From Escherichia phage Wphi, in the sequence record AY135739: 32,684 bases of DNA. One strand, written 5' to 3'. The notes under the pieces are model-generated. The model saw only the letters and a list, made by a program, of their open reading frames with translations. It made no database searches and had not been told where the DNA came from. The position numbers and the translations under genes are program-made. Positions 3,168-32,684 of the stretch are shown one piece after another (positions within the stretch are counted from its first letter, which is position 1; the number at the start of each line of letters is the position of its first letter).

Positions 3168-4022
3168 ATGGCAAAAAAAGTCTCAAAATTCTTTCGTATC
3201 GGCGTTGAGGGTGACACCTGTGACGGGCGTGTCATCAGTGCGCAGGATATTCAGGAAATGGCCGAAACCTTTGACCCGCGAGTCTATGGTTGCCGCATTA
3301 ACCTGGAACATCTGCGCGGCATCCTGCCTGACGGTATTTTTAAGCGTTATGGCGATGTGGCCGAACTGAAGGCCGAAAAGATTGACGATGATTCGGCGCT
3401 GAAAGGCAAATGGGCGCTGTTTGCGAAAATCACCCCGACCGATGACCTTATCGCGATGAACAAGGCCGCGCAGAAGGTCTATACCTCAATGGAAATTCAG
3501 CCGAACTTTGCCAACACCGGCAAATGTTATCTGGTGGGGCTGGCCGTCACCGATGACCCGGCAAGCCTCGGCACGGAATACCTGGAATTCTGCCGCACGG
3601 CAAAACACAACCCCCTGAACCGCTTCAAATTAAGCCCTGAAAACCTGATTTCAGTGGCAACGGCGGTTGAGCTGGAATTTGAAGACCTGCCTGAAACCGT
3701 GTTCACAGCCCTGACCGAAAAGGTGAAATCCATTTTTGGCCGCAAACAGGCCAGCGATGACGCCCGTCTGAATGACGTGCATGAAGCGGTGACCGCTGTC
3801 GCTGAGCATGTGCAGGAAAAACTGAGCGCCACTGAGCAGCGCCTTGCTGAGATGGAAACCGCCTTTTCCGCACTTAAGCAGGATGTGACTGACAGGGCGG
3901 ATGAAACCAGTCAGGCATTCACCCGCCTGAAAAACAGTCTCGACCACACCGAAAGTCTGACCCAGCAGCGCCGCAGCAAAGCCACCGGCGGTGGCGGTGA
4001 CGCCCTGATGACGAACTGCTGA
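3168..4022 (+). CDS. O: capsid scaffolding protein
   Basis: Internal ATG at 3168 (MAKKVSKFF...) gives 284 aa, the size of P2 gpO; lies between terminase and major capsid gene. Confidence 0.85.
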   Translation: MAKKVSKFFRIGVEGDTCDGRVISAQDIQEMAETFDPRVYGCRINLEHLRGILPDGIFKRYGDVAELKAEKIDDDSALKGKWALFAKITPTDDLIAMNKAAQKVYTSMEIQPNFANTGKCYLVGLAVTDDPASLGTEYLEFCRTAKHNPLNRFKLSPENLISVATAVELEFEDLPETVFTALTEKVKSIFGRKQASDDARLNDVHEAVTAVAEHVQEKLSATEQRLAEMETAFSALKQDVTDRADETSQAFTRLKNSLDHTESLTQQRRSKATGGGGDALMTNC

Positions 4023-4080
4023 CCGGCGTCAGTCAGTCCGGGAAAACCTTCACGATTAACCCTTAATTTCAGGAAAAACT

Positions 4081-14616: not shown

Positions 14617-15516
14617 ATGAGTGGTATTCGTATAACTCAGGCTATTGATAACAATCAGATTTTAGTAAATGTAAATACTTTTAATTATAGTGTTAATCCC
14701 TATCCACTCAAATGTCCTGACCCAAATTGCTCTGCTCATTTGGTGTATGTCAAAAGCCATATTCGTCGGAGTTTTAATAAAACCTTGCATATCCCCGCCT
14801 TCTTTAGACTGGAAAAAAATTTCACGCATGACAAATTATGTCAGTATGGAACTTCAGGATTGAATACAATTTATGCAAGTGATTCCAGTCATGATATCAG
14901 CCGTGCGCTTGCCACAGGTAATAATATATTCCGTATACATATACTCGATGAAGATGATATCTCTAAATTAAGCAGAAAAGCTGCAGCTATGCAGGCAAAT
15001 CCACCTTCTGATACTACAGACCGCGTTTATGTCAAGAGAGGTCGGAAAGCCCCCTATGTGAAGAACATGGATAGCTTACGGGAGATCTATGAATATGGAA
15101 AAGCTCACCCCAACAAGAGAAACAGCATAAAAATTGTTACTGGAACAAGTACTGTAACGTGGTCTGATTTTTTCTATGAAACAACGCAGTTAGAACGATT
15201 GTCAACTTACCTCCAGAAAGTAAAAATAGCTCAGGTTGCTGTAATTATGAAAGTGCATGTGGCGAGAATCCCTATGGCGAAATTTAATTATCGACACTTC
15301 ATTGAAGGTTCGCCAATGAGGATAAAAGGGGGCTTTAATATATATCCTACGATTCAATTAGGAAATGTTACTCCAAAATTATTTCCGTTGAGTAGCATTG
15401 TCATGGTACTCGGTAAATTTACTATTCCAACAAATAGAAAAATGATAATGGATCCAACATTTGAGCGTGAAGTCAGAACCATAGTTTCTAGTGAAGAGCA
15501 AGTGCTAATTCTTTGA
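14617..15516 (+). CDS. hypothetical protein, accessory (moron) gene in the Z/fun slot between G and FI
   Basis: 299-aa ORF with strong RBS (GGAGGAGTA-ATG); markedly AT-rich versus flanking tail genes; flanked by 215-bp and 319-bp non-coding gaps; no family recognised. Confidence 0.7.
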   Translation: MSGIRITQAIDNNQILVNVNTFNYSVNPYPLKCPDPNCSAHLVYVKSHIRRSFNKTLHIPAFFRLEKNFTHDKLCQYGTSGLNTIYASDSSHDISRALATGNNIFRIHILDEDDISKLSRKAAAMQANPPSDTTDRVYVKRGRKAPYVKNMDSLREIYEYGKAHPNKRNSIKIVTGTSTVTWSDFFYETTQLERLSTYLQKVKIAQVAVIMKVHVARIPMAKFNYRHFIEGSPMRIKGGFNIYPTIQLGNVTPKLFPLSSIVMVLGKFTIPTNRKMIMDPTFEREVRTIVSSEEQVLIL

Positions 15517-17038: not shown

Positions 17039-17557
17039 ATGGCAATGCCGCGCAAACTCAAGTTAATGAACGTCTTTCTGAACGGCTACAGCTATCAGGG
17101 CGTTGCAAAGTCCGTCACGCTGCCAAAACTGACCCGTAAGCTCGAAAACTATCGCGGTGCGGGGATGAACGGCAGCGCACCGGTAGACCTCGGCCTTGAT
17201 GACGATGCGCTGTCAATGGAGTGGTCGCTCGGTGGCTTCCCGGATTCAGTTATCTGGGAGCTTTACGCCGCAACCGGTGTGGATGCTGTGCCGATTCGTT
17301 TTGCAGGCTCTTACCAGCGTGACGATACCGGCGAAACGGTGGCCGTCGAAGTGGTCATGCGTGGACGTCAGAAAGAAATCGACACCGGCGAGGGCAAACA
17401 GGGAGAAGACACCGAGTCGAAAATCTCCGTGGTCTGCACCTATTTCCGGCTGACGATGGACGGTAAGGAGCTGGTCGAAATCGACACCATCAACATGATT
17501 GAGAAGGTGAACGGCGTCGACCGGCTGGAGCAACACCGCCGCAATATCGGCCTGTGA
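17039..17557 (+). CDS. FII: tail tube protein
   Basis: 172-aa ORF directly after the sheath gene; P2 gpFII position and size. Confidence 0.9.
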   Translation: MAMPRKLKLMNVFLNGYSYQGVAKSVTLPKLTRKLENYRGAGMNGSAPVDLGLDDDALSMEWSLGGFPDSVIWELYAATGVDAVPIRFAGSYQRDDTGETVAVEVVMRGRQKEIDTGEGKQGEDTESKISVVCTYFRLTMDGKELVEIDTINMIEKVNGVDRLEQHRRNIGL

Positions 17558-17613: not shown

Positions 17614-17889
17614 ATGAACAAAGAAAATGTGATTACCCTGGACAATCCGGTCAAGCGTGGTGAGCAGGTTATCGAACAGGTCACGCTGATGAAACCCAAT
17701 GCCGGGACGCTGCGCGGTGTCAGTCTGGCTGCGGTCGCAAACTCCGAAGTCGATGCGCTGATTAAGGTGCTGCCGCGCATGACGGCACCAATGCTGACCG
17801 AGCAGGAGGTCGCCGCGCTGGAACTGCCTGACCTTGTGGCGCTGGCCGGTAAGGTGGTCGGTTTTTTGTCGCCGAACTCGGTGCAGTGA
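17614..17889 (+). CDS. E: tail assembly chaperone E
   Basis: 91-aa ORF between tube and tape-measure genes; contains slippery GGTTTTTTG near its 3' end. Confidence 0.8.
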   Translation: MNKENVITLDNPVKRGEQVIEQVTLMKPNAGTLRGVSLAAVANSEVDALIKVLPRMTAPMLTEQEVAALELPDLVALAGKVVGFLSPNSVQ

Positions 17890-18041
17890 CGTTCCCGAAA
17901 AATTTCTCGGTCGATGACCTGATGGCGGATGTGGCAGTGATATTTCACTGGCCGCCATCAGAACTGTATCCCATGAGCCTGACCGAACTCATCACATGGC
18001 GCGAAAAGGCGCTCCGGCGAAGCGGAAACACGAATGAGTGA
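17614..18041 (+). CDS. E': tail assembly chaperone E+E' (programmed -1 frameshift product)
   Basis: Slippery heptamer T_TTT_TTG at 17862-17868 in E frame; -1 frame is open from 17868 to TGA at 18039-18041, giving 85+57=142 aa; extension ends just inside the T start, as known for P2 E+E'. Confidence 0.6.
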
Positions 18042-20481
18042 CAATGTAAAATTACAGGTATTGCTCAGGGCTGTTGACCAGGCATCCCGCCCGTTTAAAT
18101 CCATCCGTACAGCGAGCAGGTCGCTGTCGGGTGATATCCGGGAAACACAAAAATCACTGCGCGAGCTGAACGGTCAGGCATCCCGTATTGAGGGATTCCG
18201 CAAGACCAGTGCACAGCTCGCCGTGACTGGTCATGCACTTGAAAAGGCACGGCAGGAGGCCGAAGCCCTTGCCACACAGTTTAAAAACACCGAGCGTCCG
18301 ACCCGTGCTCAGGCGAAAGTGCTGGAATCCGCAAAGCGAGCAGCGGAGGACTTACAGGCGAAATATAACCGCCTGACGGATTCCGTTAAACGCCAGCAGC
18401 GGGAACTGGCTGCTGTGGGAATTAATACCCGCAATCTTGCACATGATGAGCAGGGGCTGAAAAACCGTATCAGTGAAACCACCGCGCAGCTTAACCGGCA
18501 GCGTGACGCGCTGGCGCGTGTCAGTGCGCAACAGGCAAAACTTAACGCAGTAAAACAGCGTTATCAGGCCGGAAAGGAACTGGCCGGAACTATGGCCTCA
18601 GTGGGCGCTGCCGGTGTGGGGATTGCGGCGGCGGGAACGATGGCCGGTGTTAAGTTGCTGATGCCCGGTTATGAGTTTGCGCAGAAAAACTCAGAATTGC
18701 AGGCCGTGCTCGGCGTGGCAAAAGACTCCGCCGAAATGGCCGCACTCCGCAAGCAGGCGCGCCAGCTCGGTGACAATACTGCCGCCTCGGCGGATGATGC
18801 AGCCGGTGCACAGATTATCATTGCGAAAGCCGGTGGAGATGCTGCGGCTATTCAGGCGGCAACGCCGGTCACGCTGAATATGGCACTGGCGAATCAGCGG
18901 TCGATGGAAGAAAACGCGCAACTGTTGCTGGGGACTAAGGCATCCTTTCAACTGTCAAATGATGATGTCAGTCATGTGGGCGACGTGTTGTCGGCAACGA
19001 TGAATAAGTCGGCGGCTGATTTTCAGGGACTCAGTGATGCACTGACTTATCTCGGCCCGGTTGCGAAGACGGCAGGTGTAAGTCTTGAGCAGGCAGCAGC
19101 CATGACAGGTGTGCTGCATGACAATAACATCAGGGGGTCAATGGCGGGTACGGGTAGCAGTGCCGTTGTCACCCGATTACAGGCTCCGACAGGGAAAGCA
19201 TGGGATGCACTCAAAGAGCTTGGCGTTAAAACCTCGGACAAAAAGGGAAATATGCGCCTGTTGTTCACCATTCTGAAAGAGATTCAGGCCAGCTTTGATA
19301 AACACAAGCTGGGAACGTCTCAGAAGGGGGAATACCTTAAAACCATTTTTGGTGAGGAAGCCCTGAAATCAGCGAACGTTTTACTGGCAGCGGCAGCAAG
19401 CGGAAAACTGGATACGCTGACCGCCACGCTGAAAGCCTCGGACGGTAAAACGGAAGAGCTGGTTAAAATCATGCAGGATAACCTCGGCGGTGACTTTAAG
19501 GAGTTTCAGTCCGCTTATGAGGCGGTGGGGACTGACCTGTTTGACCAGCAGGAAGGCGCACTGCGTAAGCTCACACAGACGGCCACAAAGTATGTGTTAA
19601 AACTCGACGGCTGGATCCAGAAAAACAAATCACTGGCGTCAACCATCGGCCTCATTGTCGGTGGCGCACTGGCGCTGACTGGCGTCATCGGTGCCATTGG
19701 CCTCGTAGCCTGGCCGGTTATCACCGGCATCAATGCCATCATCGCGGCAGCAGGCGCAATGGGGGCAATCTTCACGACGGTTGGCAGTGCTGTTATGACG
19801 GCCATCGGGGCGATTAGCTGGCCGGTTGTTGCCGTGGTGGCCGCCATTGTCGCCGGGGCGTTGCTTATTCGTAAATACTGGGAGCCTGTCAGCGCATTCT
19901 TTGGCGGTGTGGTGGAAGGGCTGAAAGCGGCATTTGCGCCGGTGGGGGAACTGTTCACGCCACTTAAGCCGGTGTTTGACTGGCTGGGCGAAAAGTTACA
20001 GGCCGCGTGGCAGTGGTTTAAAAACCTGATTGCCCCGGTCAAAGCCACCCAGGACACCCTGAACCGTTGCCGTGACACGGGTGTCATGTTCGGGCAGGCA
20101 CTGGCTGACGCGTTGATGCTGCCGCTTAATGCGTTCAACAAACTGCGCAGTGGTATTGACTGGGTACTGGAAAAACTCGGTGTCATCAACAAAGAGTCAG
20201 ACACACTTGACCAGACCGCCGCAAGGACTAATGCCGCCACGTATGGCACCGGTGGTTATATTCCGGCGACCAGCTCTTATGCAGGCTATCAGGCTTATCA
20301 GCCGGTCACGGCACCGGCTGGCCGCTCTTATGTGGACCAGAGTAAAAACGAATATCACATCAGCCTGACCGGTGGTACTGCGCCGGGGACACAGCTTGAC
20401 CGCCAGTTACAGGATGCGCTCGAAAAATACGAGCGGGATAAACGTGCGCGCGCCCGTGCCAGCATGATGCATGACGGTTAA
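18034..20481 (+). CDS. T: tail tape measure protein
   Basis: 815-aa ORF, Ala/Gly-rich with hydrophobic segments; P2 gpT position and size. Confidence 0.9.
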   Translation: MSDNVKLQVLLRAVDQASRPFKSIRTASRSLSGDIRETQKSLRELNGQASRIEGFRKTSAQLAVTGHALEKARQEAEALATQFKNTERPTRAQAKVLESAKRAAEDLQAKYNRLTDSVKRQQRELAAVGINTRNLAHDEQGLKNRISETTAQLNRQRDALARVSAQQAKLNAVKQRYQAGKELAGTMASVGAAGVGIAAAGTMAGVKLLMPGYEFAQKNSELQAVLGVAKDSAEMAALRKQARQLGDNTAASADDAAGAQIIIAKAGGDAAAIQAATPVTLNMALANQRSMEENAQLLLGTKASFQLSNDDVSHVGDVLSATMNKSAADFQGLSDALTYLGPVAKTAGVSLEQAAAMTGVLHDNNIRGSMAGTGSSAVVTRLQAPTGKAWDALKELGVKTSDKKGNMRLLFTILKEIQASFDKHKLGTSQKGEYLKTIFGEEALKSANVLLAAAASGKLDTLTATLKASDGKTEELVKIMQDNLGGDFKEFQSAYEAVGTDLFDQQEGALRKLTQTATKYVLKLDGWIQKNKSLASTIGLIVGGALALTGVIGAIGLVAWPVITGINAIIAAAGAMGAIFTTVGSAVMTAIGAISWPVVAVVAAIVAGALLIRKYWEPVSAFFGGVVEGLKAAFAPVGELFTPLKPVFDWLGEKLQAAWQWFKNLIAPVKATQDTLNRCRDTGVMFGQALADALMLPLNAFNKLRSGIDWVLEKLGVINKESDTLDQTAARTNAATYGTGGYIPATSSYAGYQAYQPVTAPAGRSYVDQSKNEYHISLTGGTAPGTQLDRQLQDALEKYERDKRARARASMMHDG

Positions 20482-26236: not shown

Positions 26237-28511
26237 AGCCTCCGGGCGTTTTGTCCCTCCGTCAGCATTTGCCGCAGGCACCGGTAAGGCGTTTACCGGT
26301 GCTTATGCATGGAACGCGCCACGCGAGGCTGTCGGGCGCGAAAGACCCCTTACACGTGACGAGATGCGTCAGGTGCAAGGTGTTTTATCCACGATTAACC
26401 GCCTGCCTTACTTTTTGCGCTCGCTGGTTACTTCACGCTATGACTACATCCGGCGCAATAAAAGCCCGGTGCACGGGTTTTATTTCCTTACATCCACTTT
26501 TCAGCGTCGTTTATGGCCGCGCATTGAGCGCGTGAATCAGCGCCATGAAATGAACACCGACGCGTCGTTGCTGTTTCTGGCAGAGCGTGACCATTATGCG
26601 CGCCTGCCTGGAATGAATGACAAGGAGCTGAAAAAGTTTGCTGCCCGTATCTCATCGCAGCTTTTCATGATGTATGAGGAACTCTGCGATGCATGGGTTG
26701 ATGCTCATGGCGAAAAAGAATCGCTGTTTACGGATGAGGCGCAGACTCACCTGTATGGTCATGTTGCTGGCGCTGCACGTGCTTTCAATATTTCCCCGCT
26801 CTACTGGAAAAAATACCGTAAAGGGCAGATGACCACGAGGCAGGCATATTCTGCCATTGCCCGCCTGTTTAACGATGAGTGGTGGACTCATCAGCTTAAA
26901 GGCCAGCGTATGCGCTGGCATGAGGCGTTACTGATTGCTGTCGGGGAGGTCAATAAAGACCGTTCTCCTTATGCCAGTAAACATGCCATTCGTGATGTGC
27001 GTGCGCGCCGCCAGGCAAATCTGGAATTTCTTAAATCGTGTGACCTTGAAAACAAGGAAACCGGCGAGCGCATCGACCTTATCAGTAAGGTGATGGGCAG
27101 TATTTCTAATCCAGAAATTCGCCGGATGGAGCTGATGAACACCATCGCCGGTATTGAGCGTTACGCCGCCGCAGAGGGTGATGTGGGGATGTTTATCACG
27201 CTGACCGCGCCGTCAAAGTATCACCCGACACGTCAGGTCAGAAAAGGCGAAAGTAAAACCGTCCAGCTAAATCACGGCTGGAACGATGAGGCATTTAATC
27301 CAAAGGATGCGCAGCGTTATCTCTGCCGTATCTGGAGCCTGATGCGCACGGCATTCAAGGATAATGATTTACAGGCCTACGGTTTGCGTGTTGTTGAACC
27401 ACACCACGACGGAACGCCGCACTGGCATATGATGCTTTTTTGTAATCCACGCCAGCGTAACCAGATTATTGAAATCATGCGTCGCTATGCGCTCAAAGAG
27501 GATGGCGACGAAAGAGGAGCCGCGCGAAACCGTTTTCAGGCAAAACACCTTAACCGGGGCGGTGCTGCGGGATATATCGCGAAATACATCTCAAAAAACA
27601 TCGACGGCTATGCACTGGATGGTCAGCTCGATAATGATACCGGCAGGCTGCTGAAAGACACTGCAGCGGCTGTTACCGCATGGGCGTCTACGTGGCGCAT
27701 TCCGCAATTTAAAACGGTTGGCCTGCCGACAATGGGGGCTTACCGTGAGCTACGCAAATTGCCTCGCGGCGTCAGCATTGCTGATGAGTTTGACGAACGC
27801 GTCGAGGCTGCACGCGCCGCCGCAGACAGTGGTGATTTTGCGCTGTATATCAGCGCGCAGGGCGGGGCAAATGTCCCGCGCGATTGTCAGACTGTCAGGG
27901 TCGCCCGTAGCCCGTCGGATGACGTTAACGAGTACGAGGAAGAAGTCGAGAGAGTGGTAGGCATTTACGCGCCGCATCTCGGCGCGCGTCATATTCATAT
28001 CACCAGAACGACGGACTGGCGCATTGTGCCGAAAGTTCCGGTCGTTGAGCCTTTGACTTTAAAAAGCGGCATCGCCGCGCCTCGGAGTCCTGTCAATAAC
28101 TGTGGAAAGCCTGCCAGCAGTGATAATTCGTTACCGGCTCCCACGCCTTCTGAGCACGCCGCAGCAGTGCTTAATCTGGTTGATGACGGTGTTATCGAAT
28201 GGAATGACCCGGAGGTCGTGAGGGCGCTCAGGGGCGCATTAAAACACGGGCTGAGAACACCAAATCGTCAGCAGAGAAACGGAAGCCCGTTAAAAACACA
28301 TGAAATTGCACCGTCGGCCAGACTGACCCGGTCGGAACGAATGCAAATTACCCGTATCCGCGTTGACCTCGCTCAGAACGGTATCAGGCCGCAGCGATGG
28401 GAGCTTGAGGCGCTGGCGCGTGGCGCGACCGTAAATTATGACGGGAAAAAATTCACGTATCCAGTCGCTGATGAGTGGCCGGGATTCTCAACAGTAATGG
28501 AGTGGACATGA
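26226..28511 (+). CDS. A: rolling-circle replication initiator endonuclease
   Basis: Start placed at ATG 26226 (MAVKASGRFVPPS...), 761 aa as for P2 gpA; contains HUH-like HWHMMLF and catalytic-tyrosine region GYIAKYISKN. Confidence 0.88.
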   Translation: MAVKASGRFVPPSAFAAGTGKAFTGAYAWNAPREAVGRERPLTRDEMRQVQGVLSTINRLPYFLRSLVTSRYDYIRRNKSPVHGFYFLTSTFQRRLWPRIERVNQRHEMNTDASLLFLAERDHYARLPGMNDKELKKFAARISSQLFMMYEELCDAWVDAHGEKESLFTDEAQTHLYGHVAGAARAFNISPLYWKKYRKGQMTTRQAYSAIARLFNDEWWTHQLKGQRMRWHEALLIAVGEVNKDRSPYASKHAIRDVRARRQANLEFLKSCDLENKETGERIDLISKVMGSISNPEIRRMELMNTIAGIERYAAAEGDVGMFITLTAPSKYHPTRQVRKGESKTVQLNHGWNDEAFNPKDAQRYLCRIWSLMRTAFKDNDLQAYGLRVVEPHHDGTPHWHMMLFCNPRQRNQIIEIMRRYALKEDGDERGAARNRFQAKHLNRGGAAGYIAKYISKNIDGYALDGQLDNDTGRLLKDTAAAVTAWASTWRIPQFKTVGLPTMGAYRELRKLPRGVSIADEFDERVEAARAAADSGDFALYISAQGGANVPRDCQTVRVARSPSDDVNEYEEEVERVVGIYAPHLGARHIHITRTTDWRIVPKVPVVEPLTLKSGIAAPRSPVNNCGKPASSDNSLPAPTPSEHAAAVLNLVDDGVIEWNDPEVVRALRGALKHGLRTPNRQQRNGSPLKTHEIAPSARLTRSERMQITRIRVDLAQNGIRPQRWELEALARGATVNYDGKKFTYPVADEWPGFSTVMEWT

Positions 28512-28789
28512 TGGCAAAAATTCACGAGGTAAAGCTGCACGCAAAATATTTCGACCTTGTGCTGGAAGGAAAGAAACGCGCAGAGTTTCGGAAAAATGAC
28601 CGTAATTATGAGCGCGGGGACACGTTGATTTTGCATGAATGGGTACAGGGTGTGTTTACGGGGCGAAAGGTTGAAGCCCGGATAACAGATGTTACTGACC
28701 TGTCAGACTGGCTGGAAGATTATGTCTTGCTAAGTATTGAGCTGCTTAATACAGGCGTATATGAGATTGTGAACTGGAAAGAAACTTAG
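28508..28789 (+). CDS. hypothetical protein, ASCH/DUF3850-like (P2 orf91 position)
   Basis: ATG at 28508 overlaps the A stop (ATGA); about 93 aa MMAKIHEVKLHAKYFDLVLEGKKRAEFRKNDRNYERGD... Confidence 0.55.
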   Translation: MMAKIHEVKLHAKYFDLVLEGKKRAEFRKNDRNYERGDTLILHEWVQGVFTGRKVEARITDVTDLSDWLEDYVLLSIELLNTGVYEIVNWKET

Positions 28790-29418: not shown

Positions 29419-30357
29419 ATGCCAACTGTAGTTTCACTTTTTTCTGGATGTGGTGGTTCTGATGCGGGAGTTTTGAACGCAGGTTTCAATGTGCTTATGG
29501 CAAATGATATTTTGCCTTACGCAAGGGACGTTTACTTAGAAAACCATCCTGAAACTGACTACATTTTGGGCGATATCTCAGGGCTCCAGTCGTTCCCTTC
29601 TGCTGAGTTGCTCATCGGATGCTATCCTTGCCAAGGATTTAGTCAAGGTGGGGCAAGGAAGGCAGATAGAAAGATTAATACACTATATTTAGAGTTTGCC
29701 CGTGCTTTGAGTAAAATTAAGCCAAAAGCATTCATTGTAGAGAATGTCTCTGGTATGGTAAGGCGTAACTTTGAGCATTTATTAAAGGATCAATTCAAAG
29801 TTTTCGAAGAAGCAGGTTATACAGTAAGCTCGCAAATTCTGAATGCGTCCCATTATGGGGTATCCCAAGATAGGAAGCGAATCTTTATCGTAGGAATACG
29901 AAAGGACTACGGTATTACATACAAATTTCCAAAACCAACACATGGTGATGGTTTGACACCATATTCCACAATTCGTGATGCTATTGGGCATATGCCTGTT
30001 TGGCCTGTTGGCGAGTTTTATGACGCCGATTTTCATTGGTATTATCTATCGCGAAACCGTAGGCAAGATTGGGATCAGATATCTAAAACAATTGTTGCAA
30101 ATCCTAGACATATGCCTCTACATCCAATAAGTCCAACATTAGAAAAATTGGGACCTGATAAGTGGCAATTTACTTCGGATGCACCAGCTCGTAGGTTTAG
30201 CTATCGAGAGGCTGCTATTTTACAAGGTTTTGGAGATTTAATTTTCCCAGAAACTGAACGGGCTTCTATTAATATGAAATATACTGTGGTAGGTAATGCA
30301 GTACCGCCTCCATTGTTTGAGGCGGTTGCTAGAAACCTTCCAGATTTATGGGATTAA
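29419..30357 (+). CDS. DNA (cytosine-5)-methyltransferase
   Basis: 312 aa with C5-MTase motifs in canonical order: FSGCGG (motif I), PCQGFS (motif IV, catalytic Cys), ENV (motif VI), QDRKR (motif VIII), GNAVPPPL (motif X); AT-rich gene. Confidence 0.85.
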   Translation: MPTVVSLFSGCGGSDAGVLNAGFNVLMANDILPYARDVYLENHPETDYILGDISGLQSFPSAELLIGCYPCQGFSQGGARKADRKINTLYLEFARALSKIKPKAFIVENVSGMVRRNFEHLLKDQFKVFEEAGYTVSSQILNASHYGVSQDRKRIFIVGIRKDYGITYKFPKPTHGDGLTPYSTIRDAIGHMPVWPVGEFYDADFHWYYLSRNRRQDWDQISKTIVANPRHMPLHPISPTLEKLGPDKWQFTSDAPARRFSYREAAILQGFGDLIFPETERASINMKYTVVGNAVPPPLFEAVARNLPDLWD

Positions 30358-31391
30358 GCAGCGATCGCGCTGGAAGGATCAAGGATGATATCTAGATAGC
30401 TAATATTTTGACTGTGATCAATATTATCAGATGCTCTGGTTAAATTGATTAATCTTAGGCGATCAACAAAAATAGCATCGCCTAACTTATTTTTATGTGC
30501 CCACTCACCATCTATCCATCGTAGATCTTGAGGTAAGAAATAATAAGTTGCCCATCGGTGAGCTACGGGGAATTTACTGTAGAGCATCGCAGGTGAGGCC
30601 TCAAGCTGCTTCGCTTCCCACTCTTCTTGAGAACAGCCACACTGAACAAAAGAAATAGGGATGGCATCTCGTTGATCTCCCATTGGATGCCAGGCAATTA
30701 TGTCAAGGCCTCCGTCACCACTATTTCCTCGACTGAAATCTCGTTCTTTGAAGTTCGCTGTGCAACGGATATCGGAAGCAATACTCTTAAATTTATTATA
30801 TAGAGTTCCAGTGTAAGGGGCCGCTTGACCACCAGAAGCCCAGCATGCTTTTATTATGCTACCGCTAGGCATTAGGCTTTCAAAAATAGGTAAACTAATT
30901 AGTTCAAAACTGCGCGTTATCTCTCTTCTGCTCATTATGTTGACATATTTTATGTTAGCACAGATTAGTAAAGCTAAATATAGTCTTTCTAAATGTTCCA
31001 GTGGCTTTTCTGATATATCACGTAACTCTACAGTATCGTTGTCTTCTGATAAAGTAAAAGGGTAACTATCCCCAAATAAATCAATGCGTTGTCGTATGAA
31101 GCCTATCGCATAGCTCCACTTTCTGTCAGTATATGCTCGACTAACACTTCGTTTTGTTCTCTTGCGTACAGGCGTATCATTTTCATCATCAACATCATAA
31201 ACGCCCTCTTCTTCTGCTTCATCTGTTTCAGCTAGTACTGCTTCGGGTTGAGCTTGCAGTGTGCTATATAGGTCTCCTCGACTGAATGACCTGTCGATAT
31301 TAGTTAAGGCCAATATCTCAATATAATCAGCCCATAAATAAGGCTCATTAGAAGGCATTGAATCAAGATTTGTAATCATAATCTCAATCAT
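30354..31391 (-). CDS. hypothetical protein, second gene of leftward operon, convergent with the methyltransferase
   Basis: Start assigned to ATG 31389-31391 abutting GGGAGG (alternative ATG 31377-31379), about 345 aa; acidic tract ETDEAEEEGVYDVDDEND; stop codon overlaps the MTase stop (TTAA); AT-rich. Confidence 0.6.
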   Translation of the reverse strand: MIEIMITNLDSMPSNEPYLWADYIEILALTNIDRSFSRGDLYSTLQAQPEAVLAETDEAEEEGVYDVDDENDTPVRKRTKRSVSRAYTDRKWSYAIGFIRQRIDLFGDSYPFTLSEDNDTVELRDISEKPLEHLERLYLALLICANIKYVNIMSRREITRSFELISLPIFESLMPSGSIIKACWASGGQAAPYTGTLYNKFKSIASDIRCTANFKERDFSRGNSGDGGLDIIAWHPMGDQRDAIPISFVQCGCSQEEWEAKQLEASPAMLYSKFPVAHRWATYYFLPQDLRWIDGEWAHKNKLGDAIFVDRLRLINLTRASDNIDHSQNISYLDIILDPSSAIAA

Positions 31392-32457
31392 CCTCCCTTT
31401 TGCTTCTGATCTGATTTCTAATATTTTTTGACATCTCAAAAATTTCAGATGCAGCCTCTTCATGCTCTAATGTTAATTCTTTAGCTTTAAGTAGCATATC
31501 CCAAACTACTCTTAATTTAACACTAGCTGCGTTTAGTGCTTTATCTAATGCTTCTCTTTCTCCGCTGGTATATAGATATGCTTCATCCAAGTTTGAACTT
31601 TTCATGAGAATTTCAATTGCTTCGGGTTTCTCAACCACTGCTGCAATATCTTTTATTCTTCGAGACTCACCGATGATGGTTCTACCTTGTTGGTCAGGCA
31701 CAAAAAACCAAGAGAATAAACGCTTAAGGTTTTCTTCATTTAAATTTGGGTCTAAAAAATCCTTTTTATCCTGTAGACCTAACCAGTTTGTGATTTTTGA
31801 ATATCCCAAAGCTGTGGTTATATATGAAAATTCCACGTCAGAAGCCTTCATGGGTAAATTAAAAAACTCATGGTCATGCGCGACTTCATATAAGTTCAGT
31901 GCAGTGAGAAGTGTTGCAACATAATGTGGTTTACTCCCAATCTCACGAGCCAGATTTTTTAATACTATCTCTTTAGGTTCATGTGAATAAAAAGTATCAC
32001 ATAACTCTTTAAGGTATTTGGCTTTAGATAATGAGTCCCATTCTTTGACCCCAGTTATATGACGATAACCGATATATCTCAGTACATCCTCTCGGTTTTC
32101 ATAAATGATGCAGGGAAGCTTCTTAGGTTTATTGGTAGTATCATCAATGATTTCTTGCACACCTTTAAGTTTTCTTTTTGGAGGAAGCAGATCTCCATTG
32201 AGCAACTTTACAGCAGCTAAGCGTCTGTTTCCCTCAACCACGATGTAGTTTCCATTGCTTTTTACTGCCAATAAAGGTTCTCCAGGAAAGTAACCTTGCT
32301 GACCGATTGATAGCATTAGATCGTGGACACTTTCGTCATCTAACATTTCCTCAATGACTGTTGCAGCGTTACTGGCATCATTGAGACGAAAGAAACGTGG
32401 GTTTTTAGGGTCAAAATCAAGCTTATTTGTCTCAATTTCTACGATTTTGTTATCCAT
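31384..32457 (-). CDS. ParB/Srx-fold (ParB N-terminal domain-like) protein
   Basis: Start assigned to ATG 32455-32457 with GAGG RBS about 5 nt upstream (357 aa; ORF-track maximum 401 aa); ParB-box-like FDPKNPRF and VVEGNRRLAAVKLL; overlaps downstream gene by 8 nt. Confidence 0.65.
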   Translation of the reverse strand: MDNKIVEIETNKLDFDPKNPRFFRLNDASNAATVIEEMLDDESVHDLMLSIGQQGYFPGEPLLAVKSNGNYIVVEGNRRLAAVKLLNGDLLPPKRKLKGVQEIIDDTTNKPKKLPCIIYENREDVLRYIGYRHITGVKEWDSLSKAKYLKELCDTFYSHEPKEIVLKNLAREIGSKPHYVATLLTALNLYEVAHDHEFFNLPMKASDVEFSYITTALGYSKITNWLGLQDKKDFLDPNLNEENLKRLFSWFFVPDQQGRTIIGESRRIKDIAAVVEKPEAIEILMKSSNLDEAYLYTSGEREALDKALNAASVKLRVVWDMLLKAKELTLEHEEAASEIFEMSKNIRNQIRSKREDD

Positions 32458-32684
32458 CTTAACCTCATGGGATGATGTAAATATCTTTTGGGGGATGCTT
32501 GATAAAACATCCATATTTGATCGTTTGCAGCGCATTTGATACATCGAAGTGTACAAAAATGCTGGGCATAACTCTGCATTAAAATGCATTCACATTCAAA
32601 GCACTATTTTCTCGTTGGACATTTAGCCTAAGAGAGTTTGGACGGCTTTTGGAATTGCATCAAAACCGACCCATGAAGCGGGCG

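Follow-up and report, generated by a model that had tools for sequence, protein, structure and literature searches.

The tail operon of Escherichia phage Wphi (FI-FII-E-E'-T-U-D) contains, with a probability that we put at about 95%, a P2-type programmed -1 ribosomal frameshift by which a minor fusion protein, gpE+E', is made beside the major product gpE. This reading is based on the anatomy of the locus, the family assignments of its two parts and the conservation of both the slippery heptamer and the -1 ORF, which are direct results of our analysis, together with the shift of P2, for which we draw on the literature and GenBank. The sequence contains nothing that speaks against it. The analysis supports an E/E+E' frameshift that is real and strongly conserved, and that has already been described and already annotated for Wphi; frameshifts of this kind are textbook phage biology and confirmation of this one adds no new knowledge. 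The window, by which we mean the whole 32,684-nt stretch of record AY135739, is a complete P2-type genome as judged from its ORF map and GC profile.

Anatomy and family assignment of the E/E' pair

The pair and its neighbours consist of the following features, each with the evidence used to define it.

17039..17557, + strand: FII, the tail tube gene and upstream neighbour (Pfam PF04985 Phage_tube, E = 2.3e-60)
17614..17889, + strand: gene E, whose zero-frame product is the 91-aa tail assembly chaperone (ORF, translation)
17862..17868, + strand: slippery heptamer T_TTT_TTG, the -1 slip site (phase verified by script)
17868..18041, + strand: E', the -1 frame extension of 57 codons plus TGA (translation, Pfam PF06528)
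18034..20481, + strand: T, the tape-measure gene, an 815-aa ORF (ORF; Pfam PF10145)

Direct reading and translation place the start of gene E at ATG 17614 and its stop at TGA 17887-17889, giving 91 aa. Codons 83-85 read GGT TTT TTG and TTTTTTG is therefore in X_XXY_YYZ phase, the phase required for tandem -1 slippage; T_TTT_TTG at 17862-17868 is the sole in-frame XXXYYYZ heptamer within E. Past TTG the zero frame continues for six sense codons (SPNSVQ) with the stop as the seventh codon, so that the heptamer does lie seven codons before the E stop, where the original prediction had placed it. Read from G17868, the -1 frame runs for 57 codons (VAELGAVTFPKNFSVDDLMADVAVIFHWPPSELYPMSLTELITWREKALRRSGNTNE) and closes at TGA 18039-18041, an extent and an end point that had both been predicted and that translation confirmed. 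Upstream of the slip site this frame is open for only 5 codons, reaching 37 nt back into E, and the -1 frame of P2 has the same 37-nt reach (PMC3931495). Joining 17614-17868 to 17868-18041 yields an E+E' of 142 aa (...KVVGFL/VAELGAV..., with the slash at the junction); this was the predicted fusion length, and the product agrees residue for residue with the gpE+E' on deposit for Wphi (AAN28243.1 / NP_878222.1). The further claim that the -1 stop falls a few nucleotides inside the tape-measure start also held, as the E+E' stop overlaps the T start at ATG 18034 by 8 nt (ATGAGTGA).

Both parts of the pair can be assigned to known families, taking a score above the Pfam gathering threshold as the criterion for membership. 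The E protein matches PF10109 Phage_TAC_7 with 47.0 bits against a cutoff of 25, and this family is described as 'tail assembly chaperone proteins, E, or 41 or 14'; the -1 extension matches PF06528 Phage_P2_GpE with 78.7 bits against a cutoff of 23 (E = 2e-22). Searching the solved structures by sequence gave no homologue. The pair sits between the tube gene FII (PF04985) and the tape-measure gene T (PF10145), with FII as the upstream neighbour that marks the canonical position of a chaperone pair, and Pfam matches give the order of the neighbourhood as sheath FI, tube FII, E, E', tape measure T, U and D.

Considered on sequence alone, the frameshift site is only moderately beyond chance, and chance has to be reckoned with: among mechanical ORFs of at least 80 aa, the window has 71 in-frame XXXYYYZ heptamers, and -1 runs of at least 57 codons are found at 2.5% of random in-frame positions. 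It is homology, in the form of the PF06528 match of the -1 extension and an arrangement that is family-wide, which sets the E/E+E' site apart from a chance occurrence.

The closest comparison is with phage P2. The 1.6 kb around the site are 97.7% identical to P2 and 99.9% identical to Yersinia phage HQ103. P2 E is 98.9% identical to Wphi E, the product lengths are 91 aa and 142 aa in both phages, the heptamer and its flanks are identical at the nucleotide level, and both the operon position and the overlap with the T start are the same. The two phages differ trivially, by a small number of substitutions that are synonymous or conservative (N29 for S29 and F98 for L98 in Wphi) and in the E+E' stop codon, TGA in Wphi versus TAA in P2, which is the only nearby DNA difference in the alignment. 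The P2 GenBank record (AF063097) carries a joined CDS for E+E' with the note 'shares amino terminus with gpE; -1 frameshift; essential tail protein', as well as a feature 'site of -1 translational frameshift', and an identical ...GFLVAEL... junction is found in the deposited P2 product (AAD03292.1 / UniProt O64312 'Tail assembly protein E''). A -1 frameshift at TTTTTTG has been described for P2, giving a 91-aa E and a 142-aa E+E' from one start; the TTTTTTG site is conserved in the P2-like phages of Burkholderia, and no downstream hairpin was found within 60 nt in P2-like phages (PMC3091744). Production of the fusion by Wphi is expected by analogy with the published P2 work, as far as this is relayed by the papers that cite it (PMC3091744, PMC3931495).

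Annotation of this locus is uneven. Yersinia phage HQ103 has E' annotated at 3887-4042 as a standalone 51-aa CDS that opens with GTG, with no joined E+E', and thousands of E. coli contigs have this 51-aa protein deposited as a 'GpE family phage tail protein'. The absence of the 142-aa fusion from much of the annotation of E. coli prophages is a widespread gap, and scans of the present type can be used to flag and correct it.

Conservation of the arrangement and routes to the E' domain

We examined conservation in two sets of relatives. A diverse set comprised 15 Peduoviridae, with E proteins that share 32-77% identity with that of Wphi. A prophage set was obtained by scanning one genome per bacterial species with a four-sequence alignment, which gave 78 enterobacterial loci with E proteins 57-100% identical. 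The matches from a scan of viral contigs were 99-100% identical and are uninformative for tests of conservation.

An in-frame heptamer is present near the end of E in all 15 Peduoviridae (TTTTTTG in 12, TTTTTTC in two and GGGAAAG in one), and in all 15 it is followed by a -1 ORF of 51-64 aa that closes at the T start or close to it. The E' motif (D/E)(D/E)xMADIAxxFHWxP...EL..WRExA..RSG is kept across the Peduoviridae, with DDLMADIAVIFHWPPSEL..EL..WREKA..RSG as the form kept in relatives, while the zero-frame tail of E past the heptamer has anything from 2 to 22 codons in these phages and is not conserved. Among the prophage loci the arrangement is kept in 76 of 78 (73 with TTTTTTG and three with TTTTTTA), with extensions of 54-62 aa; the two exceptions appear truncated or decayed. 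On a tree, L85 is the only one of the heptamer codons with synonymous changes, two in number, and G83 and F84 have none. The check originally proposed, conservation of the -1 ORF in related phages, thus came out positive in both sets, and the prediction that this is the conserved tail-assembly-chaperone frameshift is upheld by the identity of the site with that of P2, the Pfam families, the operon position and retention in relatives.

Several individual loci deserve mention. In a locus from Erwinia tracheiphila (L152) the -1 frame passes from E' into tape-measure sequence without a stop, and this locus looks decayed. Two others look like decayed prophage copies, one with a truncated E (L174) and one in which the heptamer has been lost (L175; …GGWFLSPASAR). 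In Mannheimia phage vB_MhM_1127AP1, a lambda-type G_GGA_AAG (positions 1082-1088 of that locus) takes the place of T_TTT_TTG and is accompanied by a conserved E'-like -1 ORF; to judge from sequence, the slippery sequence has here been swapped within one protein family.

The E' domain could in principle be reached by other routes than a tandem ribosomal slip. One is that E' is a small gene in its own right, starting at GTG 17886 (51 aa) or at ATG 17922 and perhaps translated by termination-reinitiation. The mechanical ORF at 17886-18041 does open with GTG and overlaps the E stop as GTGA, and the standalone CDS of HQ103 and of automated pipelines, with its 51-aa protein from thousands of contigs, follows this model. 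However, GTG 17886 is present in only two of 75 related loci, relatives do not share a start codon that would serve E' by itself, and from the heptamer to the conserved domain most loci lack any start-type codon. Nor is there an SD (Shine-Dalgarno) sequence before GTG 17886 (-2.6 kcal/mol) or before ATG 17922 (-5.3 kcal/mol), and the latter has no conserved anti-SD peak. What every relative does have is a -1 frame that is open from the heptamer, often from just 2-5 codons ahead of it, with an E stop that varies in position, and for P2 the fusion has been reported in the literature. We therefore rejected independent initiation of E', on the rarity of the GTG, the scarcity of start-type codons and the lack of an SD, and regard it as very improbable. 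Slippage of RNA polymerase on the T6 run, adding one U to give an mRNA with E and E' in frame (...GFFVAEL...), has even less to recommend it. The site is a homopolymeric run, and a 142-aa protein with the FFV junction is recorded from one E. coli chromosome (QTN08932.1). Efficient transcriptional slippage in bacteria usually needs 7-9 or more residues, so that six is short; moreover the run is always in X_XXY_YYZ phase and has a Z base limited to G, A or C, and the non-homopolymeric G_GGA_AAG of the Mannheimia phage can function on the ribosome only. For these reasons (a run of T6 only, the invariant phase and GGGAAAG in one relative) we judged programmed transcriptional slippage to be unlikely in the extreme. 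The junction of QTN08932.1 is an observation in its own right, as it implies T7 in place of T6, either as a natural +1 T variant or as a homopolymer sequencing error; its existence indicates that a +1 T change yields a viable in-frame fusion.

A third possibility retains the ribosome as the agent but alters the slip, with the P-site tRNA-Phe shifting alone while the A site awaits Leu-tRNA(UUG), which would give a ...GFFVAEL... junction rather than ...GFLVAEL.... Re-pairing of tRNA-Phe from UUU to UUU is perfect whereas tRNA-Leu on UUU has a third-position mismatch, and G, A and C are all tolerated at the Z position in relatives, both of which favour such a slip. The sequences deposited for P2 and Wphi carry the Leu junction, although as the annotator's model and not as a measurement. 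We consider a P-site-only slip rather unlikely; the two slips differ in the expected tryptic junction peptide, VVGFLVAELGAVTFPK for tandem slippage (Leu85) versus VVGFFVAELGAVTFPK for the P-site-only event (Phe85).

Under tandem -1 slippage, most ribosomes would read GGU UUU UUG UCG ... and terminate at UGA 17887-17889 with the 91-aa gpE as their product. A minority would slip one base back on U_UUU_UUG with tRNA-Phe (UUU) in the P site and tRNA-Leu (UUG) in the A site, both of which would re-pair on UUU_UUU, and reading would probably resume as GUC GCC GAA ... for 57 more codons to produce the 142-aa gpE+E'. The logic of the pair matches that of lambda gpG/gpGT. There, a -1 shift at an X_XXY_YYZ heptamer, which lies close to the end of the gene before the tape-measure gene, gives two proteins with a common N-terminus; they are made in a fixed ratio and serve as chaperones for the tape-measure and tube proteins. 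The lambda chaperones have been the subject of work by Levin et al. 1993 and Xu et al. 2004, 2013 and 2014. The gpG:gpGT ratio is ~30:1; G binds to the tape measure, and the T domain brings in the tube protein (PMC5009743). By analogy, the shared N-terminal domain of gpE and gpE+E' would bind the tape-measure protein and the E' domain, present in the minor product only, would recruit the tube protein; chaperone roles of this kind seem probable for both proteins. Confinement of the E' domain to the minor product would mean that the mRNA itself prescribes a fixed E:E+E' ratio. Those features of a lambda G/GT-type pair that can be read from sequence are found at this locus, namely overlapping ORFs between the tube and tape-measure genes, a slippery heptamer six sense codons before the stop of the first ORF, a -1 ORF without its own initiation signal, and retention of heptamer and -1 ORF in relatives. 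Such a pair would also make its fusion at a low fixed ratio, need both products for tail assembly and have neither in the virion, for which reports exist on P2 in the literature and in GenBank notes. Lambda differs in that G/GT have no sequence similarity to E/E', the heptamer is G_GGA_AAG and the tail is non-contractile. The efficiencies also differ, with ~1:30 for lambda versus the about 10% that frameshifting reportedly reaches in P2 in the 2002 work of Christie et al., who are also said to have shown that E' is essential.

The shift may also bear on the expression of T. The SD of T itself is weak (-3.7 kcal/mol) and the T start overlaps the E+E' stop in nearly all of the prophage loci (by 8 nt in 47 and by 11 nt in 18), from which we infer translational coupling; translation of T may thus be partly coupled to shifted ribosomes.

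Candidate signals flanking the heptamer

Two further elements, one on either side of the heptamer, were detected in the Wphi sequence.

17851..17859, + strand: SD-like AAGGTGGTC, a candidate frameshift modulator (predicted anti-SD duplex)
17919..17961, + strand: hairpin inside E', a candidate RNA element (folding energy, stem conservation)

The SD-like element, which has the form AAGGTG(G/A)TC in the family, ends 2 nt before the heptamer with its core AAGGTG ending 5 nt before, and its duplex with the 3' tail of 16S rRNA has a predicted energy of -14 kcal/mol. Across 77 distinct loci no other anti-SD site between -300 and +260 is as strong, the true RBSs of E and T included; its mean is -11.5 kcal/mol, with 90% of loci at -8 or lower. 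Synonymous recoding of its codons gave a mean of -7.5 versus -12.6 as observed. Codon usage points the same way: the ratio of AAG to AAA at K80 is 64:2 whereas four other conserved Lys columns are near 1:1, and parsimony gives 2 changes at K80 versus 9-16 at other K columns. On a neighbour-joining tree, synonymous changes numbered 2 at K80 and 5 at V81, against medians of 10.5 for two-fold sites and 15 for sites that are at least three-fold. The element is under synonymous constraint and is a candidate modulator.

The hairpin at 17919-17961 has an outer stem of TGATGGCGG/CCGCCATCA and an inner stem of CAGTGA/TCACTG, starts about 52 nt past the heptamer and lies ~74 nt upstream of the T start. 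Its folding energy is -25.2 kcal/mol (z = -4.9, with 0 of 200 shuffles as stable). When its pairing was examined over 88 sequences, 87% of cells were paired but there was little true covariation; variable stem positions mostly switch between A and G opposite U. Synonymous changes in the stem are rare (L103 3, A105 3, V109 4, H112 0 and P114 3). Across the whole family, RNAalifold recovered neither the hairpin nor a consensus structure. Support for the hairpin comes only from within the Enterobacterales and mostly from conservation, not covariation, and it too is best viewed as a candidate RNA element.

The natural comparison for these elements is with dnaX, where a -1 slip takes place on a homopolymer-type heptamer (A_AAA_AAG) in an enterobacterial host, and an SD-like sequence and a hairpin are found near the Wphi site as well. 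The distances do not correspond. Stimulation of a -1 shift needs an internal SD 8-11 nt upstream, and closer SDs attenuate (PMC6321510), whereas the SD-like element is at 2-5 nt from the heptamer and so outside the dnaX-type spacing of 8-11 nt; likewise, the dnaX hairpin lies 5-9 nt downstream versus about 52 nt here. Thus, no classical stimulator was found at a classical position, the SD-like element being too close and the hairpin too far. The fold of the 92 nt that follow the heptamer is just marginally more stable than that of shuffled sequences (z = -1.8). A small CGCCG/CGGUG stem directly after the heptamer was discarded, as it is dual-coding and not kept in relatives. The short spacing, combined with the reported attenuation by close SDs, means that any effect of the SD-like element may be of either sign: unlike a dnaX-type stimulator, it could attenuate the shift or pause ribosomes. 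In the searchable literature there was no description of an SD-like element or a hairpin beside a TTTTTTG/T6G site.

We tentatively propose that in enterobacterial P2-like phages the SD-like element and the hairpin may adjust either the ratio of E to E+E' or the coupled translation of T, an idea that we hold to be doubtful. If the elements are functional, flanking signals would give the phage a finer control over the stoichiometry of its chaperones, and possibly over expression of the tape measure, than a heptamer alone allows, and a very common family of phages would have a hitherto undescribed form of frameshift control.

Other loci in the genome

Several other parts of the genome attracted attention. 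Between G (the tail-fibre assembly gene) and FI (sheath) lies a 299-aa ORF (14617-15516, + strand) in an island of low GC content (about 38% versus about 56% in the flanks), at the position of the Z/fun cargo of P2. This ORF has no Pfam or PADLOC match and matches only phrog_7195, of unknown function; it could be a cargo or defence gene.

A low-GC block (about 40%) at the end of the genome, 29419-32589, is at the position of the old/tin cargo of P2. Within this block are a C5 cytosine DNA methyltransferase (29419-30357, + strand, PF00145), a 369-aa ORF on the opposite strand (30354-31463) that matches only phrog_3984, of unknown function, and a 401-aa ORF, also on the opposite strand (31384-32589), that matches the PADLOC models PD-Lambda-5_A and PDC-M38A. 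Finally, a 104-aa ORF with ASCH/DUF3850 domains (28475-28789, + strand) is situated right after the large replication-gene ORF.
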